Numbered from the stretch's first letter, positions 1 to 50,715 are shown. The stretch: 64,000 nt of DNA from an uncultured Acidobacteriota bacterium (GCA_963760685.1 CAVXEA010000003.1:875781-939780); one strand, 5' to 3'. The notes: generated by a model from the letters alone, not told the origin. Translations and numbers: made by a program.

Positions 1-63
1 GGGGGCCGCGGCGGCTTTGGCTTCGCGGACCCCGTCAGCTTCATCCCGTTGTTCGCTTGCCTC

Positions 64-81
64 TATGTCATGCCTGACATA
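64..81. promoter_or_regulatory. Inverted repeat TATGTCA-N4-TGACATA about 12 bp upstream of the toxin-antitoxin start. Candidate autoregulatory operator.
   Basis: Perfect 7-bp arms read directly; sits just 5' of the first TA gene. Confidence 0.4.
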
Positions 82-92
82 CGATAGCCGTT

Positions 93-431
93 GTGAGCCC
101 AAAGGACAAGCCCCTTGCCTGGCTCCACGAAGAAATCAAGAGCCCACCGCTGGGTCAGGCGGCGAGGATTGAGGCAGGCTACCTGCTCCGTGAACTCCAG
201 AGGGGCAGGGGTCTGGGCATGCCTCACTCGCGGCCCATGCCTGGTATTGGGCCGCGGTGTCATGAGTTGAGAGTGACGGACCAACACGAGACTTGGCGGA
301 TCATCTACAGGGTGGATGCCGACGCGATTGTCATCGTCGAGGTATTTGCCAAGAAGACCGCGCAGACGCCGCAGGGTGTGCTGGAGACGTGTCGGAAGAG
401 ACTGAAGGAATACGACGATGCGACCAAGTAA
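93..431 (+). CDS. Type II toxin, RelE/HigB-like (Gp49/DUF891-like killer protein)
   Basis: 112 aa. Its C-terminus (...IVIVEVFAKKTAQTPQGVLETCRKRLKEY) is typical of HigB/RelE-fold toxins. GTG start. Overlaps the downstream HTH gene by 14 nt. Confidence 0.6.
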   Translation: MSPKDKPLAWLHEEIKSPPLGQAARIEAGYLLRELQRGRGLGMPHSRPMPGIGPRCHELRVTDQHETWRIIYRVDADAIVIVEVFAKKTAQTPQGVLETCRKRLKEYDDATK

Positions 432-741
432 GCGGCAGAAGCTTGAGCGGAAGGGTTGGCGAATCGGGAGTGTGCGGGACTTTCTTGGCCTTTCTGATGA
501 AGAGGCGGCGTACGTCGAGCTCCGTCTACGGTTGGCAGACAGCCTGAAGAACAGGCGGACCAGGCGGAACCTCACACAGGCGGCATTTGCCAAGTTGATC
601 CAGTCCAGCCAGTCAAGGGTAGCCAAAATGGAGGGTGGCGATCCATCGGTCTCGCTGGACTTGTTGATTCGGTCCCTGTTGGCCCTCGGCGCATCGAGCC
701 GTGACCTGGCGCGCACCATATCCACGGCTTCAGTTCCCTAG
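418..741 (+). CDS. XRE-family HTH antitoxin (HigA-like)
   Basis: 107 aa with HTH motif RRNLTQAAFAKLIQSSQSRVAKME; toxin-first HigBA arrangement. Confidence 0.6.
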   Translation: MRPSKRQKLERKGWRIGSVRDFLGLSDEEAAYVELRLRLADSLKNRRTRRNLTQAAFAKLIQSSQSRVAKMEGGDPSVSLDLLIRSLLALGASSRDLARTISTASVP

Positions 742-749
742 GTCAAGCG

Positions 750-812
750 AACACCGAGATCAGCTGCGAGGGCCGCGGCCGCTATGACCGACGCGGACCT
801 CGTCAGCTGCAT
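750..812. repeat. REP-like imperfect palindromic element, copy A (AACACCGAGATCAGCTG ... CGTCAGCTGCAT)
   Basis: Internal inverted repeat CAGCTGCGAGG / CCTCGTCAGCTG. Same terminal motifs as copy B at 2730-2787; CGTCAGCTKCAT also occurs at 33-44. Confidence 0.5.
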
Positions 813-893
813 TGATGAGATGGACTCCTCCACCGACTCGATCGGCATCGATGTGCCTGAGTCGGTGCTTGGTAAGCAATGGAGGAGCCCATC

Positions 894-1925
894 ATGCAGA
901 ACGATACTCGTATCGCCGTGGACGTGGCAAAGAGCGTGTTCGAGATCGCAGTGTCGGATCGACCTGGGCATGTCGTCCGCCGGGAACGTCTGCCTCGCGC
1001 CCAGTTCCTGGAGTTCTTCGCCAACAACCCAGCCGCCACCGTGTTCATGGAGGCCTGTGGCTCGGCTCACTTCTGGGGACGCCGGATTCAGGATCTCGGC
1101 CATCGGGTGATCCTCATGCCCCCTCATCACGTCCGTCCCTATATCCGAGGCAACAAGACCGATCGTACCGATGCCAAGGGCATCCTGGAAGCCAGCCGTA
1201 ACGAAGACATTCATCCTGTCCCCGTGAAGACCGTGGCCCAGCAGGTCCTGACCTCGCTCCACCGGATGCGCTCGGCCTGGATGACCGAGCGGACGGCCCG
1301 CCTCAATACCCTGCGGGGGCTGCTGCGCGAGCTGGGCGTCTTCATCCCGGTGGGCGCTCGCCAGGTGGTGCCCGCGGTGTGGGCCCTCCTCGAGGACGCA
1401 GACTCGGACCTGCCCGCTGCCCTACGGCCTCTCTTCGCCGAGGCCTGTCACGAGATTCGCGACATCGAGGCGCGCATCAAGGAGGTCGAGGTCCGCCTGG
1501 AGACGATGGCCAAGGAACTCCCGGTCGTGGGGTACCTCCGCACCATTCCCGGCATCGGGCTTCTCACCGCCACCGCCCTCTGGTGCTTCATCGGAGACAT
1601 CCATCGGTTCCCGACTGGTCGCCACCTGGCCAGCTACCTCGGTCTCACTCCGCGGGAGTTCTCGAGCGGACTCAAACGAAATCTGGGTCGCATCTCCAAG
1701 CGCGGTGACGGCTACCTCCGCACCCTCCTCATCCACGGTGCCCGCTCCGTCCTTCTCCACGCCCGCACCAAGCAGCCGGATCGTCTGCGGGAGTGGGCGA
1801 ACAAGCTCGCTCAGACTCACGTCCACAACAAGGCCGCCGTGGCCGTGGCCAACAAGATGGCCCGCATCGTATGGGCCGTCTGGAGCCGACTCACCCCGTT
1901 CACAGAGATCCAGAAGGCTGCGTAG
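894..1925 (+). CDS. IS110-family transposase (DEDD recombinase; Transposase_20 C-terminal domain)
   Basis: 343 aa. N-terminus TRIAVDVAKSVFEIAV, C-terminus LRTIPGIGLLTATALWCFIGDIHRFPTGRHLASYLGLTPREFSSG ... ISKRGDGYLR. GGAGGAG RBS 6 nt upstream of the ATG. Confidence 0.9.
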   Translation: MQNDTRIAVDVAKSVFEIAVSDRPGHVVRRERLPRAQFLEFFANNPAATVFMEACGSAHFWGRRIQDLGHRVILMPPHHVRPYIRGNKTDRTDAKGILEASRNEDIHPVPVKTVAQQVLTSLHRMRSAWMTERTARLNTLRGLLRELGVFIPVGARQVVPAVWALLEDADSDLPAALRPLFAEACHEIRDIEARIKEVEVRLETMAKELPVVGYLRTIPGIGLLTATALWCFIGDIHRFPTGRHLASYLGLTPREFSSGLKRNLGRISKRGDGYLRTLLIHGARSVLLHARTKQPDRLREWANKLAQTHVHNKAAVAVANKMARIVWAVWSRLTPFTEIQKAA

Positions 1926-2279
1926 ATACGAACGGCCTACGACCACGGCGCATTGATGAAAGGAGTTCTCGCCCAGGGCTGCAAGCGTAAAGTCGCGTGA
2001 CGGCAGAACAGGTCGGACCGGCGCAGGGACAGCCGATAACAACTTGTGGCCTTCGAGGCCGCTGCATCGATTGGCTCCCTGCGCGCGGATTCCGTCATGG
2101 CCCGGAGCCCTCGGGGGCTCCTTCAATGAGGCCGGAGATACGTCTGCAGTCCGCCCCGTTCCCAACACGCGACTCGCTTCCCGCCACGGCTCGACTATGA
2201 AGAAAGCAAACGGCTAGCGATTTCTCACTTGACAGGAGGAGTCCAGATACTCGTTGTTGGACGGCATGTGCTCTCGGTT
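1926..2279 (+). ncRNA. Candidate IS110-family bridge/seek RNA in the 3' non-coding tail
   Basis: Non-coding 350 bp directly downstream of the recombinase, with a strong hairpin GGAGCCC-TCG-GGGGCTCC near 2102-2125. Position matches ncRNAs of IS1111-type elements. Structure not modelled. Confidence 0.35.
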
Positions 2280-2711
2280 TCAATTCGAGCGAGCCTCGCA
2301 AGGGACAATCAGACAGCAAGCGAGCTCCGATTCCTGCCACTCCCCACTGGGCAGCCTGGTGTATGACACGCACCCCTTTTCGTTCGCCACACGTTCGACT
2401 ACCAAGCCCTCCCACCGGATGCGACGCTGCCTAGCAATCGCTTCGACGAATACCACCGGTACACCTCTTGAGGAGTCTTCCACGCGAAGATCGCGCCAAA
2501 TCTCGCGAATCTCCGTAAGTAGTGGCTCCGGAACGGACGCGTCCGTCTGGTACTCGAACCACACATAGCGCGACTCCGCCGATCCGACGACCGCCTGTGC
2601 GGTCACTTCAACAACCCGACCTGACGACAGTGCACGTGGCTTCGCCTGCCGATGATCAGGCAACGTACAACTAAGCGATAAGGCCGTGAAGAGCACGACG
2701 ATCCGTCTCAT
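2280..2711 (-). CDS. Small secreted lipoprotein, hypothetical
   Basis: 143 aa with signal peptide plus lipobox MRRIVVLFTALSLSC. Confidence 0.5.
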   Translation of the reverse strand: MRRIVVLFTALSLSCTLPDHRQAKPRALSSGRVVEVTAQAVVGSAESRYVWFEYQTDASVPEPLLTEIREIWRDLRVEDSSRGVPVVFVEAIARQRRIRWEGLVVERVANEKGCVSYTRLPSGEWQESELACCLIVPCEARSN

Positions 2712-2729
2712 CGGGATTGATGTCCGTCC

Positions 2730-2787
2730 AACACCGAGATCAGCTGGGAACGCGACCGTCGTCGGCCGCGCGTTTCGTCAGCTGCAT
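2730..2787. repeat. REP-like palindromic element, copy B
   Basis: Starts AACACCGAGATCAGCTG and ends CGTCAGCTGCAT, like copy A. Internal repeat CAGCTGGGAACGCG / CGCGTTTCGTCAGCTG. Confidence 0.5.
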
Positions 2788-2841
2788 CTCGTTGTTCTAC
2801 GGCGCGCCCATGATACCCGCTCCACGAGTAGCGTCTCGATC

Positions 2842-3261
2842 CTAGTATGAGCGAATGGTGAAGAAGGATCCGCCCTCGCGAATACACTGGACGCGCCCAG
2901 TGCGGTCGAAGATGACAAGGCCGTCATTGGCGAACCAATGGCTATAGATCCACGCCTCTCCGACAGGCTGAGTCCTGCAGCCCTCTTCGGGCCGGGCCCT
3001 GTCTGCCCACACCTGCCCGTCGATGTCGCGCGTGGAGGGTGGCCCTAGTCGCTGCAGCACCACGGCGCTCGAGTCTGAGCGGGCGATGGCGGCGGCAACG
3101 CCACTTGGTCTACCACCGTACACGGCAAAGCCCACCAGCCCAGCTACGCCGAGGGTAGGGATGACCCAACACGCCAGAACGATGACCCAGAACATCATCC
3201 GAACCGTCGGCCTGGCAGGAGACGGCCTGAGACGTTCGGGTTCGCCGTGCGCCTCTTCCAC
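2842..3261 (-). CDS. Hypothetical small membrane protein
   Basis: 139 aa with one clear TM helix (MMFWVIVLACWVIPTLGVAGLVGFAVY); ORF only. Confidence 0.35.
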   Translation of the reverse strand: MEEAHGEPERLRPSPARPTVRMMFWVIVLACWVIPTLGVAGLVGFAVYGGRPSGVAAAIARSDSSAVVLQRLGPPSTRDIDGQVWADRARPEEGCRTQPVGEAWIYSHWFANDGLVIFDRTGRVQCIREGGSFFTIRSY

Positions 3262-3754
3262 GCGTCGCTCTCAGTTCACACGTCCGTAGAACACGGGATT
3301 AAGCTGCGGCCGCGCGTCCAGTTTGCCGTCGCGCGGCCGTCAGCTCCTGAGAAATGAGTTGTCAAGAGAATACTCTTCCCGCGCGCCCGCGCAATCACTT
3401 GCAACGGGCGAATGTTGACACGTGCGAGAGAGCTCGTCCTGGAGGCATCGGCCCACGCGAATGGTTCGATGAGGGCTGGTCCCACGACGACGTCTGGTAG
3501 CGATCGGCCAACCTCGACCTGCTCGACCTTAAAGCCGTTGGTGCGATCTCCCGCAGTGCGGGCGCGCCAAGCTCCTGACTGGGCCTCTGTGGGCCAAGGC
3601 TTTAGTCGGCACTCCGAGGGGGCATAACCTTCAATCGGGGTCTTCCCGTCGCGTCCAGGTGACCAGCTGACAGCTGGATGCTCTCCCTCGAACCTTTCTC
3701 GAGCAGCAACGGTGGACCTGCTTCCAGACCTCGTCGCCTCACGCCTGAGACTCT

Positions 3755-4753
3755 CTAAGGCTGTTCGACGACCGCGTGCCGCTTCGAGTCGTACACCTCC
3801 TGGTGTTTCCACATCGAGAGCACCGTCGCAGCGATGCGTCGGGCCAGGGTCAATCGCGCCAGAGGCGGCTTGATCCCCTTCTCGATCATTCGCTGGTAGT
3901 GGGCGTGCAGCGGATCGTCGGGCAACTGCGTGATCACCGTCATCGCCGCACCCTTGAACACAGACTTCAACAGAGGCTGGCGTTTCCGGCTCAAGCCGCG
4001 GGTGGACAGGTTCTGTGACCGCTCCAGGCCACCCTTCCTCCCCGGTCTCCAGTCTGCAGACGAGCGCGTGACGATCCCGAGCCCGCAGTAGCTCCAGAAC
4101 TGTTGCCGAGTCCGGAATCGATCGGGCACCGCCACGATCGCGACCACCTGCGCCGTCCGAATGGGACCCAATCCTGGCGCCGTTAGCAGTCTCCGGATGA
4201 TCGGATGCGACTTCGACTCCGTCAGCAGCCAACGCTCCGCTTCGTCTCGTGCAGGCACCACCAGATCCAGTTGCCGCGCCAGAATCTCCGCAAGCTGCCG
4301 GTAGGGGCCACTCAACCTTGCCAGCCATCCATCCCGGCGTTCCGGGTCGTAGACCCCAGCATCCGCGACGATCCCTCGCCCCAGGAACACCGCCTTCAAC
4401 CGATTCTTGGCACGCACCACGTCGGTGACCGCGAAGTTGTACGCGCGCACTGCCGTACGCAGTGCCGCCAGGTGATTCGGTGCCTTGAAGACCCGCGTCT
4501 CCACCGCCCCCACTCGAAGCTCCTCCGCTCGTGCGAACGCGCGCTTGATCCAGGCGACGTAGGCTTTCTCGGTGCGGGGACTGTAGTGGCGAGTCCGAAT
4601 CGCCGCCCGCACTCGATCGAGGAGTCGCACTGGAGCGGGCGGGATGACGCGCGTGACCGACCTGCCGCCGGAACCAAGCTCGGACGAGTCGTCAGGAGGG
4701 ACCGCGAGTCCCGGTCTGTGGCTTGAAGGTGGTTGGGGCCTGCTTTCCCGCAC
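3755..4753 (-). pseudogene. Chimeric or degenerate ORF: tyrosine-recombinase (integron-integrase-like) N-terminal SAM domain fused to an IS110 transposase C-terminal domain; lacks the DEDD catalytic N-terminus
   Basis: N-terminus LLDRVRAAIRTRHYSPRTEKAYVAWIKRAF matches the IntI/Phage_int_SAM_4 motif RxxHYSxRTExAYVxW. C-terminal half (IIRRLLTAPGLGPIRTAQVVAIVAVPDRFRTRQQFWSYCGLGIVTRSSADW) is IS110 Transposase_20. Confidence 0.6.
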
Positions 4754-4943
4754 TTCCTTCCTCCCCTCGACCCCTGAAGGTCCCTGCCTTGGTCCCGCTC
4801 GATGGCCATCGGGGAGAGCGGCTGCCAGCGCCTACCCTAGCCGAAGGCCGGGACAGGGGAGGACCGAATTCTCTTGCCATGGAGGCCGCCGGCAGTTGAA
4901 GGCGTTCAAGCTCGATCCGGTGGAGCTGCGCCAGGTAAGTCAC

Positions 4944-4955
4944 GCCCCGCGGGGC
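4944..4955 (-). terminator. GC palindrome GCCCCGCGGGGC just 3' of alr. Possible terminator hairpin.
   Basis: Perfect 12-bp palindrome 13 nt after the alr stop; no clear U-tract. Confidence 0.25.
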
Positions 4956-4967
4956 GCGCGGGCGGTC

Positions 4968-6110
4968 TCAGGGCTCGTAGAGGCGGGGGACGCGATCGTT
5001 GATGGCGGTCAGCACTTCATAGGGGATCGTTCCCGCCCACGCCGCGAGCTCCTCCACGGTGAGGCGCGCGCCCTGCTGCTCGCCGATGAGGACGACCTCG
5101 TCTCCGTTGTAGCCGGTGCCGTCCTCGATGTTCACCATCATCTGGTCCATGCAGATGGCGCCTACCTGCGCGACCCGCTGGCCGCGAAGGATCACCTGCG
5201 CCCGGTTCGACATGCTGCGGAAGTAGCCGTCGCCGTATCCCACCGGCACGGTCACCACGCGGACGCGATGATCGCTCTTCCAGGTGGAGCCGTAGCTGAC
5301 GGGGCTGCCCGCCTCGACGAGCTTGAAGTAGACGACGCGGGAGATCCAGGACAGCGCGGGGGTGACCTCGACCACGTGGGGAGCGTCCGCGTAGGGGTAG
5401 ACGCCGTACAGCAGGATGCCCGGGCGCACGAGGTCCAGATGGCTCTCGGGCAGACGCAGGATCGCCGCCGAGTTGGCCATGTGTCGCTGGGGCACGGCCA
5501 GGGAGCGTCGCTCGTAGAAACGCAGCACTTCTTCGAAGCGCGTGAGCTGGCGGCGCGCGTCAGCCAGGTCTTCCGCGTCGGCGTTCGCGAAGTGAGAATA
5601 GATCCCCTCCACCTCGACGTGAGGAGAACGGGCGGCGGCCTCCAGCAGGCCCTCCGCGTTGTAGTAGTGGACGCCGATGCGCTCCATGCCGGTGTCGATC
5701 TTGAGGTGAACGCGGGCCCGGACCTTCCGGGCCGCCGCAGCTTCCTCCACGTCGCGCAGTCGAGCCAGCGAAGGCACGGTCTGGGTGAGACCGTGGTCGA
5801 GAAAGAGCGGGATCTGACGCGTCCAGACGCCGCCAAAGACGAGGATGGGGTTCAGGATGCCGAGCCGACGGAGCGCGATCCCCTCTTCGACCAGGGCCAC
5901 GCCGAATGCGTCGGCCAGCGGAGCCAGGGCGCGCGCCACGGCCTCGAGGCCGTGGCCGTAGGCGTTGGCCTTCAGGATCGGCATGACCCGCGCGGGGGCG
6001 ACGTGCCTCTTGACCGCCAGGAGGTTGGCGCGGAGGCGGGAGAGGCGCACCACGGCGTAGGTGGGGCGGAGGCGGGCTTCCTCGGGGGTCAGGGGCGAGG
6101 GGTCGATCAC
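4968..6110 (-). CDS. alr: Alanine racemase
   Basis: 380 aa with PLP motif VMPILKANAYGHG and full-length similarity to Alr. Confidence 0.9.
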   Translation of the reverse strand: MIDPSPLTPEEARLRPTYAVVRLSRLRANLLAVKRHVAPARVMPILKANAYGHGLEAVARALAPLADAFGVALVEEGIALRRLGILNPILVFGGVWTRQIPLFLDHGLTQTVPSLARLRDVEEAAAARKVRARVHLKIDTGMERIGVHYYNAEGLLEAAARSPHVEVEGIYSHFANADAEDLADARRQLTRFEEVLRFYERRSLAVPQRHMANSAAILRLPESHLDLVRPGILLYGVYPYADAPHVVEVTPALSWISRVVYFKLVEAGSPVSYGSTWKSDHRVRVVTVPVGYGDGYFRSMSNRAQVILRGQRVAQVGAICMDQMMVNIEDGTGYNGDEVVLIGEQQGARLTVEELAAWAGTIPYEVLTAINDRVPRLYEP

Positions 6111-6769: not shown

Positions 6770-6933
6770 AACGGGAGGGCGCGGCCATCGCATTCCGGAG
6801 ACGAACAGTCGCCTCCCGGTTCCGCACACCTCCCCCTCGAAAGCACCCGTAACCTCCTGACGGGCGGACCCAGCATCCCGTCAGGCATGGCACGGCCGTT
6901 GCTGTCTCTCGCCCGATGGGTGGAGGCCGAGCC

Positions 6934-9363
6934 ATGAAGGAACTGGTGCGTGACGCTCGCTTCGGTCTGCGACTGCTCGCGGGGAGCCCCGGCTTCACGA
7001 GCGTCGCGGTGCTGGCTCTGGCCCTGGGGATCGCCGCGAGCACGGCGATCTTCAGCGTCGTCTACGCCACGTTGCTCGCGCCCTTGCCCTATCCGGAGCC
7101 CGACCAGCTCGTCATGGTCTGGTCCAAGATCCAGGGAAACAAGAACGTGACCGCGGCCGGCGACTATCTCGACTGGAAGCGGGAGAGTCGCGTCTTTCAG
7201 CACCTGAACGCGTGGACGGGGAGGGGCGTGAGCCTCGCGACGGGTGCGAGCCAGCCGGAGCAGGTCCAGGCCAGCGTCGTGACGCCGGGCTTCTACACGA
7301 TGGTCGGGGATCCCCTCCTCCTGGGGCGCGACTTCCTTCCGGAGGAAGGAGAAGTGGGGAAGGATCAGGTGGCGATCCTGACCCACCGGCTGTGGCAGCA
7401 GCGCTTTGGCGGCGACCGTGCGGTGGTCGGCCGCGAGATCCGGATCGACGGCAAGCCGCACACCGTCGTGGGGATCATGGCTCCGGGCCTCGCCGACCGT
7501 GGCCAGGCGGGGCTTTCGGTGCCCCTGGCCTTCGCTCCGGACCAGATCAATCACGACTTCCACTGGCTGCTGGTCATGGGCCGCCTGAAGCCCGGCATCT
7601 CGCTGGCCCAGGCCAACGCCGACATGGCGACCGTCACCGGCGGCATCGCCCAGGCCCACCCTGCCTCCAACCAGGGTTGGGGAGCGAGCGTCGAGCTGCT
7701 CCAGAACAACTTCCTGAGCCGCGACACCGTCGCCGGTCTTTGGATGCTCCTGGGAGCGGTGGGCTTCGTCCTGTTGATCGCCTGCGCCAACGTGGCGAAC
7801 CTCATGCTCGCGCGCGGAACGTCCCGGCAGCGGGAGATCGCGGTGCGGGCCTCCCTCGGAGCGGGTCGTCGTCGGATCTTTCAGCAGATGCTGGTCGAGA
7901 GCGTGGTCCTGGCCGCGATCGGCGGCGTCCTGGGCGTGGTCCTCGCCCAGATCCTGCTGGACGGGATCCTGGCCATGATGCCCGCCAACACCCTGCCCAC
8001 GGAGGCGGACGTCCGGCTGAACCTGCCGGTGCTGCTCTTCACCTTCGCGGTCTCGGTCGGGTCCGGAGTCCTGTTCGGCTGCATGCCGGCTTGGCAGGCC
8101 ACCCGGCTCGACCTCAGCACCACCCTCAAGGAGGAGGGACGGTCTTCGCTGGGAGGCGGCCGCACGCGTCTGCGTCAGGGCCTGGTGGTGGCCGAGCTCG
8201 CGCTCGCGCTGACCCTCCTGGCCGGAGGGGGGCTCGCCGTGTCGAGCCTCGTGAAGCTGATTGGCGTCGACCTCGGGTTCCGCACCGAACACCTGCTGAC
8301 GTTCTCACTGCCGGTGCCGAGTGGGCGCTTGCCCGGGCCCGATCAGATCCAGACCTTCTACACGCAGCTCGTGGAAAGGATCCAGGCGGTTCCCGGCGTC
8401 GCCTCGGCCTCGGTCTCGACCGGGATGCCCGTGGCGGGCACGGGGTTCGGTATGCCCTTCACGATCGTGGGCAAGCCCGTCGCGGATCGGTCGCGTCGCC
8501 CCGGCGCCGGGTTCAACATGGTGACGCCCGAATACTTCCGCACCTTCGGCCTGCAGGTCGAGAGGGGCCGCGCCTTCACCGAGGCCGATCGCGCCGGCGG
8601 AGTGCCGGTGGCGGTCGTAAACGCCACCTTCGTCAAGAGGTACCTGCCCGGTGTGGATCCCCTGAACCAGAGGCTCCTCATCGAGCAGCTCATCCCGGGT
8701 GTCACGAAGCTCGGGCCCGAGATCGAGTGGCAGATCGTGGGGGTCTATCGCGACGTGCGGAACGGCGGGCCCGGTGGGGACGCGTTCCCCGAGATCGACG
8801 TGCCCTTCGCGCAGAGCCCGTGGCCGGGCACGACGGTCGCGGTACAGACCGCGGGCGCACCGGGCGGCGTGGCGAGCGGGATCGCCGCGGTCGTGAAGTC
8901 GCTCGACCCCGACCTGCCCATGGCGGACGTCAAGAGCATGGACCAGATGGTCAGGGAAGCCACGGCCGGCGCGCGCTTCACCGCCGTGCTTTTCGGTACC
9001 TTCGCTGCGATGGCCTTGCTGCTCGCCGCGGTGGGGATCTACGGCGTGATGTCCTTCGTGGTGGCCACGCGTACCCACGAGATCGGCCTGCGGATGGCTC
9101 TCGGCGCCGGTCGTGCGCAGGTGCTGTGGCAGGTCCTCCGCGAGGGCATGACTACGGCGCTCCTGGGTACTGCTCTGGGCACGCTCGGGGCCCTCGCGGT
9201 CGGCCGGGCCATGAAGGGAATGTTCTACGGGGTGGGAACGATGGAGCCGGTGGCCTTTGCTTCGGTGGTGGCCCTGCTTCTGGCTTCGGCGGTCCTCGCC
9301 TGCCTCGTCCCTGCGCGCCGTGCCGCCTCGGTTGACCCGATGACGGCTCTCCGGCAGGACTGA
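6934..9363 (+). CDS. ADOP-type ABC transporter permease (duplicated FtsX, MacB-like)
   Basis: About 810 aa. N-terminus MKELVRDARFGLRLLAGSPGFTSVAVLALALGIAASTAIFSVVYATLLAPLPYPEPDQLVMVW is the hallmark of Acidobacterial duplicated orphan permeases. Two FtsX modules. GGAGG RBS. Confidence 0.9.
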   Translation: MKELVRDARFGLRLLAGSPGFTSVAVLALALGIAASTAIFSVVYATLLAPLPYPEPDQLVMVWSKIQGNKNVTAAGDYLDWKRESRVFQHLNAWTGRGVSLATGASQPEQVQASVVTPGFYTMVGDPLLLGRDFLPEEGEVGKDQVAILTHRLWQQRFGGDRAVVGREIRIDGKPHTVVGIMAPGLADRGQAGLSVPLAFAPDQINHDFHWLLVMGRLKPGISLAQANADMATVTGGIAQAHPASNQGWGASVELLQNNFLSRDTVAGLWMLLGAVGFVLLIACANVANLMLARGTSRQREIAVRASLGAGRRRIFQQMLVESVVLAAIGGVLGVVLAQILLDGILAMMPANTLPTEADVRLNLPVLLFTFAVSVGSGVLFGCMPAWQATRLDLSTTLKEEGRSSLGGGRTRLRQGLVVAELALALTLLAGGGLAVSSLVKLIGVDLGFRTEHLLTFSLPVPSGRLPGPDQIQTFYTQLVERIQAVPGVASASVSTGMPVAGTGFGMPFTIVGKPVADRSRRPGAGFNMVTPEYFRTFGLQVERGRAFTEADRAGGVPVAVVNATFVKRYLPGVDPLNQRLLIEQLIPGVTKLGPEIEWQIVGVYRDVRNGGPGGDAFPEIDVPFAQSPWPGTTVAVQTAGAPGGVASGIAAVVKSLDPDLPMADVKSMDQMVREATAGARFTAVLFGTFAAMALLLAAVGIYGVMSFVVATRTHEIGLRMALGAGRAQVLWQVLREGMTTALLGTALGTLGALAVGRAMKGMFYGVGTMEPVAFASVVALLLASAVLACLVPARRAASVDPMTALRQD

Positions 9364-9491
9364 CCCATTCCTCCGGGGGCCTGGCCGCCCCGGCACCGCG
9401 GTGGGCTAGAATCGGCGAGTCGGCGAGGGGGGCGGGGCCGCATGGGGAGTGCCGAGCACCGCGGTGACACGCGAGGCAGGACGCCGGGCGG

Positions 9492-10895
9492 ATGAGCTCG
9501 CGCCCGCTCCCCCGGATCGGAGCGCGGCTCGCCCTCCAGGGCGTTCTCGCTCTGAGCTACTTCCTCACGGCCAAGCTCGGCCTGCAGTTGGCCTTCCTCA
9601 ATTCGAGCGCCACGACCGTGTGGCCACCCACCGGGATCGCGATTGCAGGTCTCCTGGTCGGAGGCGCAGGCCTGTGGCCCGCCGTCCTGGTGGGCGCCTT
9701 CCTGGCCAACGTGGCCACGACGGGGCTGGTCCTGAGCTCCGCGGGGATCGCCATCGGCAACACCGCCGAGGCCCTGATCGGCGCCTACCTGGTCAACCGC
9801 TTCGCCGACGGCCGGGATGCGATGAAGCGGGCCCAGAGCATCGTCAAGTTCGCTTTCCTGGCGGGAGTTGTGAGCACGGCCATCAGCGCCACCCTGGGTG
9901 TCACCAGCCTCCTCGCCGGCGGCCTTCTCCGGCCCGGAACCTACGGGGCCGTGTGGCTCACGTGGTGGATGGGCGATCTGGTCGGAGCGGTGATGGTGGC
10001 TCCCGTCGTCCTCACCTGGAGCGCGGAGCCACGCCTCCGGTGGACCCGCGGTCAGGCGTTGGAGGCGGGGGCCCTGTTGCTGGCGCTGGTCATCGGTGGT
10101 CTCGCGATGTTCGGTGGGTTTCTCCGTCTCTACCCCTTGATCTTCCTGGCCCTGCCCCTGCTGCTCTGGCCCGCCTTCCGATTCGGACCGCGCGAAGCGG
10201 CGAGCGCGGCGGTGGTGCTGGCGGGAATCGCCGTGGCGGGGACCCTTCGGGGCCACGGCCCTTTTACGCATGGGTCGCCGAACGAGTCCCTCCTCGAGCT
10301 CCAGTCGTTCATGGGGGTCAATGCCGTGACCGCGGTCGCGGTGGCCGCGGTGGTTCGGGAGAGGAAGCGTCTCGAGGCGAGGCTGGCCCACCTCGCCGAC
10401 CACGATTCCCTCACCGACGTGCTCACGAGGCGGCGTTTCCAGGACGAGCTCGCTCAGCAACTGGCCCACTCCCAACGCTATGGCACGCCGGGAGCCGTGC
10501 TCTTCCTGGACCTGGACAACTTCAAGTCCGTGAACGACCGTCTGGGTCACGGAGTGGGGGACCAGATCCTGATGAACGTGGCGAGATCGCTGCGCGCGCG
10601 GCTGCGGGACAGTGACTTCCTCGGTCGTCTGGGCGGCGACGAGTTCGCCGTGCTCCTGCCCTGGGCCGACGGGGCTCAAGCCCAGGCCGTCGCCGCGCAA
10701 TTGGTGCGGACGATCGCCTCGGAGCGCACCGTCGTCGGCGGAACCGAAATCGCTATCGCGGCGAGCATCGGCATTGCCCTCATCCCCGAGCACGGGCAAA
10801 CCGTGGAAGAGCTGTTGGCCCATGCCGATGCGGCGATGTTCCAGGCCAAGGCCGCCGGGAGCAACCACCTGCAGGTCTACGCCCCGGGGGTATGA
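9492..10895 (+). CDS. Diguanylate cyclase with MASE1 membrane sensor and GGDEF domain
   Basis: Polytopic N-terminus. C-terminus RRRFQDELAQQL ... LFLDLDNFKSVNDRLGHGVGDQIL ... RLGGDEFAVLL. Confidence 0.85.
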   Translation: MSSRPLPRIGARLALQGVLALSYFLTAKLGLQLAFLNSSATTVWPPTGIAIAGLLVGGAGLWPAVLVGAFLANVATTGLVLSSAGIAIGNTAEALIGAYLVNRFADGRDAMKRAQSIVKFAFLAGVVSTAISATLGVTSLLAGGLLRPGTYGAVWLTWWMGDLVGAVMVAPVVLTWSAEPRLRWTRGQALEAGALLLALVIGGLAMFGGFLRLYPLIFLALPLLLWPAFRFGPREAASAAVVLAGIAVAGTLRGHGPFTHGSPNESLLELQSFMGVNAVTAVAVAAVVRERKRLEARLAHLADHDSLTDVLTRRRFQDELAQQLAHSQRYGTPGAVLFLDLDNFKSVNDRLGHGVGDQILMNVARSLRARLRDSDFLGRLGGDEFAVLLPWADGAQAQAVAAQLVRTIASERTVVGGTEIAIAASIGIALIPEHGQTVEELLAHADAAMFQAKAAGSNHLQVYAPGV

Positions 10896-10940: not shown

Positions 10941-12341
10941 TCAGGAGCCGAAGATCTTCTTGAGGACGTCCTTCGCCTTGTCGGTGTTCGTGACCCGATA
11001 GATCAGCGAAACCTTCACCCGCCATTCCTGAATGCGCGCCTTGCCCTGGACCTCGGGCCCGGGCGGGAGGCCGAAGTCCGCGGCTCGACCGACGACGTAG
11101 ACCGGAGTGAGATTCAGCGTGTTGCCAAAGTCGCCCCACCGATACTCCACGGACACGTCGAGCTTGACGCTGTTCGAGTTGAGGCCGGTGCCGGCGGCGA
11201 GGATCCTGTGGTTGGAGTCGTCGCGCACCAGGGGGTCCCGCCCTCCCTGGGGCTCGCGGCTCCAGCCGAAGCGGAGCGGGACGAACTGGCCGTTGACCGG
11301 GAAGAGCTTCTCGATCCCCGCGTTTACCGTGATCGTGTCGCGAGTGGCGCTCAGCTCGGGTGGCAGCCCGTCGAACCCGCTCGTCGGCTGATCGGGTGAG
11401 TTGGGCGAGCCGACGACCAGGAACTGCGTCCACTGGTCGTAGGTGACGTCCACGGCCAGTCGCAAGAGGGGCTTCGGAAGCCAGGCGACACCCACGCCGA
11501 TCGACCGCGGGAAATGGATCTGGGGCCCGTTCTCGAAGCGAGCCTCGAAAGGGTCCGTCAGGCTGGAGAGGGTCGTCTGCGAGACCGCATAGTCGCCGAG
11601 GAGAGCCCCGTGATAGACCATTCCCACCCGGAACTTCGGATAGCCAAGGAGCAGCCCGAGGGTCAGGTTTTCGCCACGGACCGAGTTGGTGATGCGGACG
11701 GAGCTGAAGTCGGTGGGACCGGCGACCCCCGGGTCTTCGCTGGTGTTGGCGCTATCCTCCCAGTCGCCTCGGTAGAGATCCAGGCTGAAACCAAGGGACA
11801 AGCGGCTCGTGAGGCGGGCCGCGCCGGCGAACGACCAAAGGTCGATGCTGCCGTTGGTCTCGCCGTCGAGGCGGACGACGCCCTCGGGCCGAGAGGTCGG
11901 GGAAGACGGAACCCGCCGCATGTCGCCCCGCAAGCGTGCGTTCAACTGGTAGAGACGCCGCCAACCCACCTGGAGGGTGACGGGCTTGCCCGCCACGCCG
12001 AACGGAACGGCGGCGCTCGCGAACTCGATGTCGGTGGTCGTCGCGCTGGACTTCAGGGTCGTGAAGAAGGCGGAGTCGTCGCGGGCCTTGTAGCCCTCGA
12101 GGAAGGTGGTGCGCCCGCTCGTGCTCTGGACGAGGGAGAACTCGGGCTTGCGGAGCTGGGAGAGGCCCGCCGGGTTCCAGGAAGCGGCCGTGCCGTCGTC
12201 CGAGACCGCGATGAAGGCGTTGCCCATTCCGGCCGCCCGCGCGCCCGAGCCCGCACGGTTGAGCGAGGTCTCCTGAGCGCCCGCCGCGGCCGCGGCCGTC
12301 AGGAGGGCCGTGGCCAGCAGCTTCGTGCCCACCCTGCTCAT
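10941..12341 (-). CDS. Outer-membrane beta-barrel transport protein, FadL/OmpP1/TodX-like (OMP1)
   Basis: 467 aa with signal peptide MSRVGTKLLATALLTAAAAAGAQE and AGMGNAFIAVSDDGTAASWNPAGL motif. Start abuts the upstream kinase stop. Confidence 0.7.
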   Translation of the reverse strand: MSRVGTKLLATALLTAAAAAGAQETSLNRAGSGARAAGMGNAFIAVSDDGTAASWNPAGLSQLRKPEFSLVQSTSGRTTFLEGYKARDDSAFFTTLKSSATTTDIEFASAAVPFGVAGKPVTLQVGWRRLYQLNARLRGDMRRVPSSPTSRPEGVVRLDGETNGSIDLWSFAGAARLTSRLSLGFSLDLYRGDWEDSANTSEDPGVAGPTDFSSVRITNSVRGENLTLGLLLGYPKFRVGMVYHGALLGDYAVSQTTLSSLTDPFEARFENGPQIHFPRSIGVGVAWLPKPLLRLAVDVTYDQWTQFLVVGSPNSPDQPTSGFDGLPPELSATRDTITVNAGIEKLFPVNGQFVPLRFGWSREPQGGRDPLVRDDSNHRILAAGTGLNSNSVKLDVSVEYRWGDFGNTLNLTPVYVVGRAADFGLPPGPEVQGKARIQEWRVKVSLIYRVTNTDKAKDVLKKIFGS

Positions 12342-13139
12342 CGCGCCGCCGCGAGGAAGTCGCTGAGCTCGTTCAGCAGCTCTTCGGCGGAGGGCCGCTC
12401 GGAGGGGTCCTTGCTCAGCAGGCGCAGGACGATCCGGTCGAGGTCCTTCGAGAGCGCGAAGTTCAGGGTGGAAGGGACGGGAGGCGGGGTGAGGCAATGG
12501 CTGCGCAGCACCGCGAAGGGCGTGTCGCCGCGAAAGGGCAGGCTGCCGGTCAGCATCTCGAAGAACACCACGCCGAGCGAGTAGAGATCGCTTCCCGGCT
12601 GGCTCGTCGATTCGATGGTCTCGGGGGCGGCGTAGCTCGGGGTGCCGAGGAACGACCCGGTGGTGGTGAGCCCCTCGAGGCGCTGCGCGCGGGCGATCCC
12701 GTAGTCCATCACCTTCAAGCCTCCCGACTGCTCGAGCATGATGTTCGACGGCTTCAGATCGCGGTGGATCACGCCCTTGTTGTGGGCGTAGTCGAGCGCT
12801 TCCGCCACCTGGGAGGTGATCCGCGCCGCCAAGGGCGGATCCAGCCGGCCTTCGAGGTCGAGGCGCGCCCGCAAGGTCTCGCCGTCCACGAGCTCCATGG
12901 ACGAAGTAGGGCGTGTCGCCGACCTGGCCCCGATCGAAGATGCGGATGATGTTGGGGTGGTGCAGGGCGCGGCCGAGCTCCGCCTCGCGCAGGAAGCGCT
13001 CGAGGAAACGGGGATCGTCGAGGAAGCCGGCCAAGGGCCGCTTGAGGGCGAATCGCTCGCCGCGCCGCTCGGCCTCGTAGACGCAGGCCATGCCGCCCTT
13101 GCCGATGCGGCGGATCAACTTGTAGTCGCCGAAGGGCAT
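12338..13139 (-). CDS. Ser/Thr protein kinase, catalytic domain only; interrupted by a +1 frameshift near 12898
   Basis: N-terminal half (IGKGGMACVY ... FALK ... HHPNIIRIFD ... DTPYFV) is in one frame. C-terminal half (MELVDGETL ... HRDLKPSNIM ... SFLGTPSYAAPE) is in the next. The junction reads TTCGTC-C-ATGGAG, a single extra C. Confidence 0.8.
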
Positions 13140-14196
13140 GGGGAAGCTCTCGTCGGTCCCGCGGTCGCTTCCGCTGCCGATCGACGGAGTCGAGCGCGGG
13201 CGGTTGCGGAGGAGCAGTACTCGCCCCGCTCCTGATCCAAAGGACGACGCCGAGGGCCAGGAACGCGACGAGAAGCAGGGCCGCTCCCCATCGCAATCCA
13301 GGATGGGTCTCCAGGGCGGGGGCCGCGGCCGGAGCCGGGGCCGCCGGGCGATAGGGCAGCGCTGCGTCGAACGCCAGCGATGGGCCGGCGAGATCGAGCT
13401 CGCGGATGAGATCGTCACGTCCCTCGGACGAGAGCCGGATTCGGTGGCGGCCCCTGGCCAGGCCCGTGAGCCGCAGTCGCCCGGTCTCCGGATCCGTGCG
13501 CCCGACGGGCGCGTCGTCGAGAAACACCTGCGCGCCAGGAGGGTGGGAGGTGACGTCGATCGACGCCGTCGCGTCGGATGGGGTGGGGCGCGGCATAGCG
13601 CTTTCCCGGCTCGGAGCGGCGGGGTGGGTTGCGGGCGTGGCCGGGATTGGGGGCAGGGGGTGCGTGGCCACGGGCGGGGGCACCGCTTCGGCTGAAGTCG
13701 TGGCCGGCGGCGGCGCGGGCGTGACCTGGGCGGCGACCACCGCCGGTGAAGGGCTTGGCGTCGCGGTTGGAGCCGGAGGCGGCCGCTTCGCGAGGAGAGC
13801 CGCGCGCGCACGCGCCTCGAGGGCGGCTCGTTCCTCCGCGGGCTCGGCCCCGAGCCGCGCGGAGGTCTCCAGCACCTTGAGCGCGTCCTCGTAGGCTTCG
13901 AGGAGCAGGTCGGCCTCGGCCAGCCGAAGGTACGGAAAATAGCGGGGCTCGAAGTTGGTCCCGTAGGTGGGGACGTTCACGCCGGCTTGCGGACGCTTCT
14001 CGATCGCCCGCCGCAGAAGCTCCGCCGCGCGCTGACCCTGGCGGTTGCGCAAGGCGCGCACCCCGTCCGCGTAGAGCTCGTGCCACTCCTGGGCTGAAGC
14101 ACCCACGGGCCAGAGGCAGGCGAGTGCCAGCAAGGCGGCGGCGGCGAGCCTGGTAGAGCGGCCGAGACCGCGTGCACGAATGTCGAAGGGGGCCAC
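13140..14196 (-). CDS. Secreted/membrane protein: signal peptide, TPR-like 'YFPYL' region, Pro/Ala-rich linker, PEGA domain, C-terminal TM helix; possibly fused to the downstream kinase in the true sequence
   Basis: Signal peptide MAPFDIRARGLGRSTRLAAAALLALACLWPVGASA. PEGA domain VTSHPPGAQVFLDDAPVGRTDPETGRLRLTGLARGRHRIRL. TM helix LRWGAALLLVAFLALGVVLWI. No stop before the out-of-frame kinase start, so a hidden indel or a fusion is likely. Confidence 0.55.
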
Positions 14197-26893: not shown

Positions 26894-26933
26894 CCCAAGA
26901 TAGTATCCCCGTGGAATCCAAGCGGAGGCACCG

Positions 26934-29649
26934 ATGCCCAAGTCCCGAAAGGCCGGGGTCGACCGGCGCCAGTTCTTGAAGCGAGTCGGCGCCGCGGCCG
27001 GCCTGGTCGCGGTCGGGCCGTGCGAGGAGAGCGCCGGGAGCCAACGGCCCACGGAGGGCCAGGAAGCCGAGGGCCTGGCCCTGGTCGTCGACCCGGACGA
27101 CACCATCGCCTCGTCGCCACCGGCACAAGGAGCGGCCGACCTCCTCCGCCGGACGTGCGAGTCTCGCGGCCTTCCCGCGCGCATCTGCCGGAAGATCGAA
27201 GAGGTCCGACCGAAGGAACGGTGCATCCTGGTGGCGGGGAGCGGAACCAGTGCAGCGCCCGAGTCGTTCGTGCTCGCGCCCACTCGGCGCGGCGACCGCA
27301 CCCTGGTGCTGGCGAGCGCGCCCGACGCGCTGGGGCTCGCCTACGCGCTCACGGAGCTGGCCGATCGGGTCGACTGCTCGCGCGACCCGCGGCAGGCCCT
27401 CCAGGTGGCCGAAGAAGGTCGAGGATCGGCCGACCTGTCGCATCCGCAGCATCATGCGGCTCTTCGCCAGCGACGTGGAGGACAAAGGCTGGTTCCACGA
27501 CCGGTCCTTCTGGCCCTCGTACCTCGACATGCTCGTCACCCAGCGGTTCAACCGGTTCAACCTCGCCTTCGGTATCGGCTACGACTTCGCGCGGCAGCTC
27601 CGGGACACCTACTTCTACTTTCCCTATCCCTTCCTCCTCGCCGTGCCCGGCTACGACGTGCGCGCGGTGGGTCTCAGCGATGCGGAGCGCGACCGCAACC
27701 TGGAGACGCTCCGCTTCGTGGGCGAGGAGGTCGCGAAGCGTGGCCTGCACTTCCAGCTCGGCCTCTGGACCCACGCCTTCGAGTGGACGGACAGCCCGAA
27801 CGCCAACTACACGATCTCGGGTCTCACCCGCGAGAACCAGGCCGCGTACTGCCGCGACGCGGTGCGTGCGCTGCTCGAAGCGTGTCCGGCAATCCGCGGC
27901 CTGACCATCCGCACCCACGGCGAGAGCGGCGTCCCGGAAGGCGACGAGGGTCGCTACGCGCTTCTGGCAGACCCTCTTCAGCGGCGTGGCCGGGGCCGGC
28001 CGGCCCGTCGAGATCGACCTGCACGCCAAGGGCGTCGACCAGCGGATCATCGACCTCGCCCTGGCCACCGGGGCTGCCCGTCCGCGTCTCCCCCAAGTTC
28101 TGGGCCGAGCACATGGGGCTGCCCTACCTCCAGTCCTCGATTCGCGCCCTGGAGCTGCCCACGGAGGAGCCGACCGCCGACCGCCTCATGGCGCTCAGCA
28201 CGGGCACGCGCAACCACATGCGCTACAGCTACGGCGACCTGCTGATGAAGGGCCGCCGCTACGGCATCCTGCACCGGGTCTGGCCGGGGACGCAGCGGCT
28301 GCTGCTCTGGGGCGATCCGGCCTACGCGGCGCAGATGGGCCGCACGTTCAGCGCCTTCGGGGCCGACGGCGTCGAGTTCATGGAGCCGTTGTCCTTCAAG
28401 GGCCGCAAGGGCTCGGGCCTTCCGGGGGGACGCGATGCCTATCGGGATGCGTCGCTCCGCGCCCCGGGGGGCGACTGGCGCAAGTACGAGTACACCTACC
28501 GGCTGTGGGGCCGGCTGGCCTACGACCCGTCCGCGGATCCCGAGATCTGGCGGCGGCCGCTTCGGCAACAGTTCGGCGCGGCGGCCGAGGCCGTCGAATC
28601 CGGCCTCGCCCAGGCGAGCCGCATCCTGCCCCTCGATCAGCAGCGCCCACTGCCCGTCGGCCGCCAACAACAACTACTGGCCCGAGATCTACAGCAACAT
28701 GTCGCTCGTCGACGGCGTCAACCGCGGCTCGTACTCCGACACGCCGACCCCCAAGGTCTTCGGCCACGTGAGCAGCCTCGACCCCCAGCTCTTCGCGAGC
28801 GTCGACGAGCTCGTGGAGTCGCTCCTGGGTGCTGACGCCCGCGGGCAAGATCACGCCGGTCGAGGTGGCCCGACAGCTCGACCAGTGGGCGGAGTCCTCG
28901 GCGGCTGAGCTGGCCCGGGCCGGGGCCCGGGCTCGCCGACCGCACGGATCCTCGCTACCGGCGGGTCGCCGTCGACTGCGCGATCGCCGCCGGCCTCGGC
29001 CGGTTCTTCGCGCGGAAGCTCCGGGCCGCGCGTCCTCTTCGGGATCTTCGATCGCACCGGCGACCCCCGCGCGCGGGACGAGGCGCTCGGCCAGTACCGT
29101 GAGGCCCGAAGCGCCTGGGCCGACTTCGCGGCCGGGCCCGCCACCGTCTACGTTCGCGACATCACCTTCGGGTTCGACTCCCATCTGCGGGGCCACTGGC
29201 AGGACCGGCTGGCCGCGATCGACCGGGACATCGCCGCGCATCGAGACGCGAGCGCCAGAGGGCGCGGGGGCGGTGTCCAAGGAACGAGTGGCCGCCGCGA
29301 TCGCCGCCGTTCTCGACCCACCCCGAAGGCCGGTCGTGGCGGTGGAGCACACGCCCGGCCGCGTCCTTCGTGCCCGGGCAGGCCGTGCCCTCTCGTGGCC
29401 CGCGTGTCGCCCGACGCGACCTCCGTCCGCCTCCAGTACCGCCACCTCAACCAGGCCGAAACCTACAGCGCCCTGGACATGGAGCGGGAAGGTGCTGTGT
29501 GGCGCGCCACGGTGCCCGCCGACTACACGCAGTCACCGTACCCGTTGCAGTACTACTTCGAGGTGCGGTCCAACGCCGGCGTCGCGCTGTGGCCGGGGTT
29601 CAAGAGCGACTTCCTGGGACAGCCCTACTTCGTGTCTTCGCCGGCCTAG
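26934..29649 (+). pseudogene. Tat-secreted glycoside-hydrolase-like protein, about 900 aa; reading frame broken at least 8 times
   Basis: Tat motif [13 protein letters not shown]. Conserved blocks sit in alternating frames: FWPSYLDMLVTQRFNRFNLAFGIGYDF ... LGLWTHAFEWTD; VEIDLHAKGVDQRIIDLALATG; VSPKFWAEHMGLPYLQSS ... LWGRLAYDP; NNYWPEIYSNMSLVDGVNRGSYSD; YVRDITFGFDSHLRGHWQDRLAAID; C-terminus LQYRHLNQAETYSALDMEREGAVWRATVPADY. Confidence 0.7.
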
Positions 29650-32419: not shown

Positions 32420-32443
32420 CTCGAGGTCGCCTTTCCTCGGACG

Positions 32444-34407: not shown

Positions 34408-34459
34408 GAAATGTTCGTCTCCTTGGTCGTCTCCCGCGAGCCCGACAGGGGAGTCTACC

Positions 34460-35795
<1,336 letters not shown>

Positions 35796-35889
35796 TGGGC
35801 CGGTCCTTCTCCTCGAAGCGCGAGCCGCCGCGCCACCGGGGCCACATCCTAACCTCGTTGTGGGCCTTGCGCCTCCGTCCGCTTCGACC

Positions 35890-41976: not shown

Positions 41977-41989
41977 GACGCTACCCTCC

Positions 41990-43842
<1,853 letters not shown>

Positions 43843-43843
<1 letters not shown>

Positions 43844-50628: not shown

Positions 50629-50715
50629 CGGACGACTCCTTTCCATGCCCAACACGGGAAGGAGCAACGAATACCATAGGCGCACCTTCAGGGGCAACCG
50701 TCCCCAGGATCCCGG

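Follow-up and report, generated by a model that had tools for sequence, protein, structure and literature searches.

Only a few routes are known by which information passes from the outer membrane to the cytoplasm, namely TonB-dependent cell-surface signalling, the Rcs system, and the sigma-E/DegS system. In the FecA-FecR-FecI type of cell-surface signalling, the genes of an outer-membrane barrel and of a bitopic inner-membrane protein form a pair, and the periplasmic part of the latter is thought to contact the barrel and to control a cytoplasmic output. In Rcs, the outer-membrane lipoprotein RcsF, bound to outer-membrane proteins (OMPs), signals to IgaA in the inner membrane. Here, we analysed a 64,000-nt stretch of DNA from an uncultured Acidobacteriota bacterium (GCA_963760685.1 CAVXEA010000003.1:875781-939780; hereafter, the window), in which a receptor-type Ser/Thr kinase gene, K1, and a gene for a FadL-family barrel, OMP1, lie together at 10941-14196 on the minus strand (locus 1). 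A second locus at 49398-54168 (locus 2) encodes the kinase kinase2, the barrel OMP2, and the secreted protein YLP2, and a further secreted protein, YLP3, is encoded at 48520-49374. K1, YLP2, and YLP3 have in common a small domain, termed YLP. The analysis suggested that these genes represent a known kind of system, trans-envelope signalling, in an undescribed form with an unusual type-I receptor-kinase topology. A preliminary description of this DNA, made from the sequence alone, had stated that the module has no named function; we likewise found no paper and no curated family describing it.

The gene structure of locus 1 was determined by comparison with homologues. In the preliminary description, a secreted protein comprising a signal peptide, YLP, PEGA, and transmembrane (TM) segments was followed by a separate kinase gene and a FadL-like OMP. 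All of these components were found at 10941-14196, but the first two constitute one gene. Homologues of K1, searched with its N-terminal 333 aa, were single polypeptides of 549-583 aa that have the same N-terminal domain and a C-terminal kinase (database proteins P0004, P0009, P0028, P0033, and P0034). In a tblastn search, P0004 covered 14100-12341 of the window in three successive frames. Translation of the minus strand of 12250-13450 in three frames indicated that, after the TM segment, the run continues as MPFGDYKLIRRIGKGG...TPYFV/MELVDGETL...LAAAR. Furthermore, an intact 600-aa K1 gene is present at 8202-10004 of the JGI contig Ga0483978_0000023 (locus L163), where it overlaps an OMP gene by 4 nt; the encoded OMP is 90% identical to OMP1. 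In the DNA alignment of the window with this contig (91% identity), the gaps that are not multiples of three are two 1-nt insertions, at approximately 13206 and 12901, both in the window only. Because the homologues are single-chain, P0004 spans the three frames, and the gene of L163 is intact, we concluded that locus 1 is an operon of two genes: K1 (12338-14196; approximately 600 aa if the two insertions are repaired) and then OMP1 (10941-12341). The stop codon of K1 (TGA, 12340-12338) overlaps the start codon of OMP1 (ATG, 12341-12339) as ATGA, which agrees with the earlier remark that the kinase stop abuts the OMP start; the same coupling was observed in L001 and L163.

K1 starts with a signal peptide (14092-14196, MAPFDIRARGLGRSTRLAAAALLALACLWPVGASA followed by QEW), which was assigned from the sequence, and its mature homologues start at AQEW. 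The YLP domain (13795-14094; E 3e-45 with a custom hidden Markov model, HMM) consists of two TPR-like hairpins and a conserved β-hairpin insert (…PTYGTNFEPRYFPYLRLAEA…) and bears the motif YGTNFEPRYFPYLRLAEA. It is followed by a Pro/Ala/Thr-rich tether (13564-13794), a PEGA domain (13360-13563; PF08308, E 7.5e-6, 26.2 bits against a cutoff of 20.8), a TM helix (GLRWGAALLLVAFLALGVVLWI, 13237-13293, hydropathy 2.49), and a cytoplasmic kinase domain read in two frames (12347-13139; PF00069, E 1e-52). The catalytic motifs of the latter are intact (G-loop GKGGMACVY, ALK, HRDLKPSN, DYG, and APE), and mark K1 as a putative Hanks-type kinase. The homologue P0004 was used for an AlphaFold2 (AF2) model. 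In this model, residues 1-107 form two helices, a β-hairpin (VPTYG/FEPRY), and three helices with a predicted local distance difference test score (pLDDT) of approximately 90, beyond which a disordered Pro-rich stretch corresponding to the tether, a PEGA β-sandwich, a TM helix (265-288), and the kinase follow. In K1 homologues, the span from YLP to the TM helix is 100-190 aa long and contains 17-33% Pro, with PEGA present or not.

The order signal peptide-ectodomain-TM-C-terminal kinase makes K1 a type-I (N-out, C-in) receptor kinase. Like PASTA-type kinases and eukaryotic receptor kinases, K1 is a Hanks kinase that crosses the membrane once and has its sensor outside the cytoplasm. In PknB/PrkC-type kinases, the N-terminal part is the kinase and the C-terminal part the sensor, whereas the order in K1 is eukaryote-like. 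To our knowledge, a receptor order with a C-terminal kinase is unusual in bacteria, and a full-text literature search found no description of a bacterial protein with the order of K1.

The YLP segment had been described as a repeat of Y-x-x-Y-L-P-x-x-Y-L. Instead, we found one motif per domain of approximately 95 residues, and all four copies in the window align with homologues over that length. Comparison of the YLP profile with the PDB matched consensus TPR proteins at positions 6-45 and 54-88, and the TPR domain of p67phox across both repeats; p67phox has a hairpin insert between its TPRs. Both the profile and the P0004 model placed the domain in the TPR superfamily. The invariant or nearly invariant residues Y8, A23, R34, Y44-G45, Y52, and P54 are clustered in and around the β-hairpin, and the motif W.xY.xG ... 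R ... YG..F..Y.P is kept from Acidobacteriota to Desulfobacterota, Nitrospirota, and Hydrogenedentota. YLP is a TPR variant that is separated from generic TPRs by its hairpin insert and its invariant Y-G ... Y.P. It also has a specific genomic partner, as described below, and the possibility, raised in the preliminary description, that the region is a generic TPR with no specific association was not borne out.

No YLP-specific family was present in Pfam or NCBIfam. An exhaustive search of 1.84 billion cluster representatives (50% identity) with the YLP profile yielded 790 proteins at E ≤1e-30 and 4,312 at E ≤1e-10, and the best matches were mostly 650-710 aa long with the domain at the N-terminus. 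A search of a 5.8-billion-protein set with the YLP alignment gave fragments shorter than 180 aa only, named 'TPR' or 'hypothetical', and no architectures. In addition, multiple matched stretches were observed in P0289 (834 aa, eight stretches) and P0280 (940 aa, three stretches); thus, YLP can form a true tandem array, as in YLP3.

OMP1 is an intact FadL-family β-barrel protein of 466 aa that has the NPA hatch motif near its N-terminus and is extended at the C-terminus by an amphipathic helix (TNTDKAKDVLKKIFGS). Against the Toluene_X family (PF03349, cutoff 29.7 bits), OMP2 scored 73.6 bits and OMP1 24.0 bits, just under the cutoff, and many homologues at least 55% identical to OMP1 have a precomputed PF03349 match. 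In their sources, the proteins of the module are named 'long-chain fatty acid transport protein', 'hypothetical', or 'TPR repeat protein'. The AF2 model of OMP1 (pLDDT 82.4, pTM 0.81) was compared with the PDB using Foldseek. The top matches were BamG chains from three structures of the Bacteroidota β-barrel assembly machinery (BAM; 9hiv_F, 9n2d_B, and 9hjm_F), followed by FadL, TodX, and TbuX (E 1e-16 to 1e-10, TM scores 0.55-0.69, and 0.6-0.69 for BamG and FadL). The modelled OMP1 shows the FadL-type fold, which has 14 strands in solved members.

Both barrels contain the NPA hatch motif (OMP1, ...DDGTAASWNPAGL; OMP2, ...DDATAAESNPAGL), in a region where the pLDDT of the OMP1 model is low. 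The preliminary description had noted the N-terminal DDxTAAxxNPAGL motif as common to the two paralogues. The motif is indeed present in both, but it is the hatch signature of FadL, PorV, and BamG; because the PorV and BamG profiles also contain it, it is a mark of the family and not of this module. NCBIfam profiles of PorV_fam, BamG, and FadL matched both OMPs, all below threshold. Membership of PorV/PorQ (NF033709, 41-52 bits against 90) and of PorV from type IX secretion systems (T9SS; NF033710, 18-25 bits against 250) was rejected, and only the N-terminal 40 residues matched. Membership of BamG (NF053685) was also rejected, as the window OMPs scored 33-51 bits and the Desulfonema OMP 85 bits against a cutoff of 250; the likeness to BamG is structural only. 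BamG and PorV have the motif GMG..F.AVADD...NPAGL in common with the window barrels, and BamG provides the precedent that a FadL-family barrel can act as a protein-binding scaffold (PMC12611786). However, sequence identity is 13-15%, and no BAM or T9SS genes occur in the context of the module. The kinship of OMP1 with a scaffold and the scoring of its N-terminal motif against PorV_fam would suit a machine for envelope assembly, export, or anchoring, akin to PorV shuttles, BamG-BamH, AlgK-AlgE, PelB-PelC, or FlgT/TsaP rings, whereas scores so far under the PorV and BamG cutoffs speak against it; this explanation is taken up again below with the lipoproteins.

A feature that distinguishes the kinase-linked barrels was found at the C-terminus. 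An extension of approximately 16 aa follows the last strand (consensus ...SLIYRxTDTxKLxxxLKKxFGS; window 10941-10991) and is helical at residues 453-464 of the OMP1 model. It was present on every acidobacterial kinase-linked OMP with an intact C-terminus (L001-L025, L032, L035, and L043), and absent from OMP2, which ends ...VVYRF, and from the OMPs of other phyla (54/54), which end ...IYHF or ...VYRF. Since barrels normally end at the β-signal, a C-terminal helix is unusual and is a candidate docking peptide. The kinase-linked OMPs form a subgroup of their own with a unique C-terminal helix, and the outcome that the preliminary description had allowed for, clustering with generic FadL transporters regardless of the kinase neighbourhood, was not observed. 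The Pfam and NCBIfam checks revealed no curated family specific to this subgroup.

The genomic linkage of OMP and YLP was then examined in one genome per species, using a query alignment of four OMPs. The best 80 loci were kept (all but one from metagenome-assembled genomes, MAGs), translated in six frames, and searched with our own HMMs for kinase, YLP, OMP, and PEGA. A YLP domain was located within 6 kb of the OMP in 53 of the 80 loci, and there were no matches beyond 6 kb in 329 kb of 'far' sequence, compared with 744 kb of 'near' sequence. As a control, 80 loci centred on kinase2-like kinases (approximately 0.6 Mb) contained no OMP and no significant YLP. In the reverse direction, starting from YLP fragments, a Toluene_X OMP was found one or two genes downstream in two of three contigs (L164 and L165).

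The 26 Acidobacteriota or Vicinamibacteria-like loci, whose OMPs are at least 36% identical, differed from the rest. A same-strand kinase adjoins the OMP in 24 of them; of the remaining two, L011 is without flanking sequence and L018 is the one exception. The kinase is fused to YLP, as YLP-(PEGA)-TM-kinase, in 17 of the 26 loci, and the fusion gene is positioned directly upstream of the OMP, upstream at a distance of 2 kb with a gene of the opposite strand between them, or downstream. In seven acidobacterial loci (L002:9634-11712(-), L010:7765-9933, L017, L021, L025, L043, and L013), a protein of approximately 700 aa is encoded on the opposite strand between kinase and OMP; it has a hydrophobic N-terminal stretch and no Pfam match. 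In the 54 loci of other phyla (Geobacteraceae, Desulfobacterales, Nitrospirota, Hydrogenedentota, Lentisphaerota, and others; OMP 25-31% identical), YLP was found within 6 kb in 36, including 28 of the 37 with full flanks, and the YLP-kinase fusion in none. These results revealed that the conserved core consists of the OMP and the YLP domain, with a recurrence far beyond chance, and that the kinase is not a universal partner, its fusion to YLP being confined to the Acidobacteriota (Vicinamibacteria-like) clade. The preliminary description had proposed a conserved co-occurring unit; this holds for OMP and YLP but not for the kinase as a universal member.

Chance adjacency in a kinase-rich genome, pseudogenes, or both might have produced the arrangement without any functional unit. 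A third, unrelated kinase is indeed encoded in the same window, and the genes of the module carry many frameshifts. Segmentation of reading frames by GC content at third codon positions (GC3) revealed many changes of frame on the same strand within genes across the window (69% GC), including 26902-28828, 32390-36327, 41636-44710, and 49398-50650. However, the kbl-like α-oxoamine synthase gene at 47426-48519 (+), a housekeeping gene, is also read in three frames; therefore, the assembly carries many indels, and the damage points to assembly error. The frame changes are consistent with an indel-rich (long-read) assembly, and the frameshifts of the module copies are most likely assembly error. 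Moreover, the K1 gene is intact in the 91%-identical relative, the adjacency is kept in more than 50 species of several phyla, and the negative controls were clean. We thus consider the absence of a functional unit very improbable. The same type of damage was observed in related MAG loci (L007, L035, and L166) and in database proteins (P0002 and P0012).

Outside Acidobacteriota, YLP heads a uniform protein of 645-736 aa (approximately 680 aa) with a lipobox in most copies. Pfam analysis of 31 such lipoproteins identified a Glucodextran_B-type immunoglobulin (Ig) domain in all 31, CsgG in 22, LpoB in 10, and FlgO in 8, and the lipoprotein profile matched the C-terminal domain of TsaP in the PDB. 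No curated family specific to the lipoprotein was found in the Pfam check. Neighbour clustering and Pfam further identified, in 23 loci, a protein of 900-1,200 aa that combines Guanylate_cyc, CHAT, an optional TPR, and a CsgG-like part; its copy in L051 has an additional N-terminal Pkinase. In four of five such proteins that were examined, CHAT is followed by one TM segment, so the cyclase and CHAT would be cytoplasmic and the CsgG-like part periplasmic. An extracytoplasmic function (ECF) sigma factor and a zf-HC2 anti-sigma factor are paired beside OMP-YLP in 12-14 loci. Kinases were recruited independently in L049, L051, L058, L164, and locus 2 of the window. The recurrence of such varied signalling neighbours indicates that the OMP-YLP pair was repeatedly wired to different signalling proteins. 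Recurrent cluster members were the ECF sigma factor, the zf-HC2 anti-sigma factor, the cyclase-CHAT-(TPR)-CsgG-like protein, the YLP-Ig-CsgG-like lipoprotein, and the FadL-like OMP (e.g., L026:13317-15998, L040:2345-5242, L051:6296-9892, L080:5466-7180, and at least 20 other loci); we found no description of this cluster in the literature.

The matches of the lipoprotein C-terminus to CsgG, LpoB, FlgO, and TsaP return to the envelope machine introduced above, in which the barrel and the lipoprotein would form a structural complex, with the kinases, cyclase-CHAT proteins, and ECF factors as its regulators. However, neighbour clustering gave no cargo, synthase, or T9SS genes conserved near OMP-YLP, and in Acidobacteriota the kinase ectodomain replaces the whole lipoprotein, which fits poorly with the Ig and CsgG-like parts being structural. 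We regard this explanation as improbable.

We next compared the module with the systems described at the outset. Like FecA-FecR-FecI, it pairs a barrel genetically with a bitopic inner-membrane protein, and in other phyla OMP-YLP adjoins an ECF sigma/zf-HC2 anti-sigma pair. In contrast, the barrel is of FadL type rather than a 22-strand TonB-dependent receptor and has neither an N-terminal signalling domain nor a TonB box, the transducer is a Hanks kinase (or, elsewhere, a cyclase-CHAT protein), and a TPR variant takes the place of FecR as the contact domain. Neither FecR nor an ECF sigma factor was found beside either window locus, and the relation to cell-surface signalling is one of analogy only. 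Like Rcs, the module joins a barrel to a lipoprotein partner and to a signalling protein of the inner membrane, which together would monitor the envelope, the same three tiers being formed by the lipoprotein form and the cyclase-CHAT protein; there is, however, no sequence relationship, the outputs differ, and the middle tier is, in Acidobacteriota, part of the kinase protein. Thus, the logic of the module resembles that of cell-surface signalling and Rcs, yet the defining components of both are absent. A kinase-based phage defence system (PD-T4-6, PADLOC) was rejected, as an orthologue of K1 matched in the kinase domain only and the OMP and lipoprotein were unmatched.

TonB combines an inner-membrane anchor and a long Pro-rich periplasmic spacer with a distal OMP-binding domain. 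K1 has the same geometry of anchor, Pro-rich spacer, and distal domain placed for the barrel, although there is no homology and no ExbBD-type motor, and the cytoplasmic side of K1 is a kinase. Because a distal domain on such a tether is able to reach the outer membrane, contact-dependent signalling is favoured, and the recurrent linkage to four kinds of signalling output points in the same direction. We consider trans-envelope signalling with docking of YLP on the barrel the best reading of the module, with a probability of approximately 0.55. The analysis shows the structure of the genes, their domains and topology features, the conserved adjacency with its statistics, and the FadL fold; the docking, the direction of signalling, and the stimulus are what we infer in the following scheme. 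YLP, at the far end of a Pro-rich tether (often with PEGA) that is anchored in the inner membrane and would span the periplasm, may dock on the periplasmic face of its cognate barrel. Candidate contacts are the C-terminal amphipathic helix of the kinase-linked barrels, the conserved hatch segment, or both. If the barrel altered, for instance on binding a hydrophobic ligand or when the outer membrane is perturbed, this would be passed on to the kinase in the cytoplasm. Outside Acidobacteriota, the OMP-YLP pair would feed a cyclase-CHAT protein with a periplasmic CsgG-like domain, often together with the ECF sigma/anti-sigma pair.

A wider proposal is tentative, and we rate it somewhat below even odds: YLP may be a dedicated docking module for one branch of the FadL family, and OMP-YLP the shared front end of a widespread, undescribed trans-envelope signalling system, with the barrel acting as a sensor and not as a transporter alone. 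Its outputs, at least three, would include a type-I receptor kinase in Acidobacteriota, a TM adenylyl/guanylyl-cyclase-CHAT protease, and, in Desulfobacterota, Nitrospirota, and others, an ECF sigma/anti-sigma pair.

The same genes could also constitute a substrate-sensing regulon without docking, in which an ordinary FadL-type channel takes up a hydrophobic compound, YLP is a periplasmic ligand- or peptide-binding sensor of this compound or its product, the kinase or the cyclase-CHAT/ECF proteins regulate uptake and catabolism, and adjacency reflects co-regulation. The FadL fold and NPA hatch motif are kept, homologues are annotated as long-chain fatty acid transporters, and TPR-like domains are able to bind small peptides or ligands. 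However, catabolic genes are not among the conserved neighbours of the pair, since clustering of these neighbours gave signalling and envelope proteins only; the position of YLP, at the end of a periplasm-spanning tether or on an outer-membrane lipoprotein, suits contact with the outer membrane better than a soluble ligand; and the C-terminal helix is specific to the barrels partnered with kinases. Accounting for the module by such a regulon is rather unlikely.

Several observations weigh against signalling by docking. In canonical FadL, the substrate leaves laterally for the membrane and is not handed to a partner in the periplasm. No YLP was detectable nearby in approximately a quarter of the complete non-acidobacterial OMP loci, and L166 contains a cyclase-CHAT gene but no OMP within 7 kb. 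The distance matrices of the OMPs and their adjacent YLPs were correlated (r = 0.89, Mantel p = 0.001), and this co-divergence counts in favour of the docking scheme; but shared ancestry contributes to the value, and since the kinase-fused form amounts essentially to a single clade, common phylogeny confounds both the mirror-tree correlation and the co-occurrence of helix and kinase. K1, kinase2, OMP2, and YLP3 are all frameshifted here, and if these frameshifts are real, the module is decaying in this genome. Finally, the nearest relatives of kinase2 elsewhere are without the module, which leaves the conservation of locus 2 unsupported by the kinase scan. None of its 80 loci had an OMP or a significant YLP, and the sole close match, L083, is a 2-kb fragment; the link of locus 2 to its kinase therefore rests on the local gene overlap and the analogous loci L049 and L058.

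If signalling by docking is correct, a FadL-family barrel and a receptor kinase would add a route from the outer membrane to the cytoplasm, via a domain of approximately 95 aa. It would also give a eukaryote-like receptor-kinase layout to the abundant but poorly understood soil Acidobacteriota, and a candidate role to the uncharacterised ~680-aa lipoprotein family and the cyclase-CHAT membrane proteins. The prediction is that YLP binds the barrel, possibly via the C-terminal helix of the latter.

The genes of locus 2 were reconstructed across frameshifts. Kinase2 (51812-54168, minus strand) comprises an N-terminal Ser/Thr kinase, a TPR/coiled region, a TM segment, a Pro-rich linker, and a periplasmic β-rich domain of approximately 75 aa, with two frameshifts at approximately 52913 and 52067. 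Its match to PF00069 (E 7e-55) and the motifs GQGGFGVV, AIK, HRDIKPAN, DFG, and PPE indicate a putative Hanks-type kinase. YLP2 (50716-51815, minus strand; 3' end approximate, with one or more frameshifts) is secreted and has a single YLP domain (51441-51737) as well as a C-terminal part that is helical, and its TTG start overlaps the stop codon of kinase2 as TTGA. A metagenome scan for YLP2 gave 600 pattern matches, with no relative among them. OMP2 (49398-50628, minus strand), a paralogous FadL-family barrel 23% identical to OMP1, starts approximately 70 nt downstream of YLP2 and has at least six frameshifts in this assembly. Of the four components that had been ascribed to locus 2 by likeness to locus 1, the kinase, YLP protein, and paralogous OMP were recovered, but PEGA was not: the C-terminal domain of kinase2 gave no Pfam match to PEGA up to E 10 and an hhalign probability of 0.1% against the PEGA profile of K1, and its identity as PEGA was rejected. 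Locus 2 is a split version of the module, with a secreted YLP protein, a barrel, and a conventional bitopic kinase; L058 and L049 have the same component set (bitopic N-terminal kinase, OMP, and separate YLP protein). YLP3 (48520-49374, plus strand), noted earlier as a third YLP protein, was confirmed as secreted and is frameshifted; it carries two YLP domains in tandem, at 48578-48856 and 49050-49335, and its gene converges on OMP2. The gene at 54206-54739 (+), divergent from kinase2, codes for a stand-alone response-regulator receiver protein.

Other genes were observed around the two loci. A MASE1-GGDEF diguanylate cyclase gene (9492-10895, +) converges on OMP1 and adjoins a duplicated MacB/FtsX-type permease (6916-9363, +); both are syntenic in the close relative L163 and not in L001. 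An Rfam scan at the gathering cutoff found no RNA families in the window. An FHA-IPT/TIG protein of 1,070 aa (56163-59375, +) is directly followed on its 3' side by the third Ser/Thr kinase, which has C-terminal TPRs (59347-61713, +); the genes at 56163-61713 are plausibly an FHA/kinase pair not related to the OMP module. The ends of the window (1-5000 and 61000-64000) have a GC content of 60-65%, compared with approximately 70% elsewhere, and a weak GC3 coding signal, and an IS110-family transposase (DEDD_Tnp_IS110 and Transposase_20) is encoded at 879-1925 (+).

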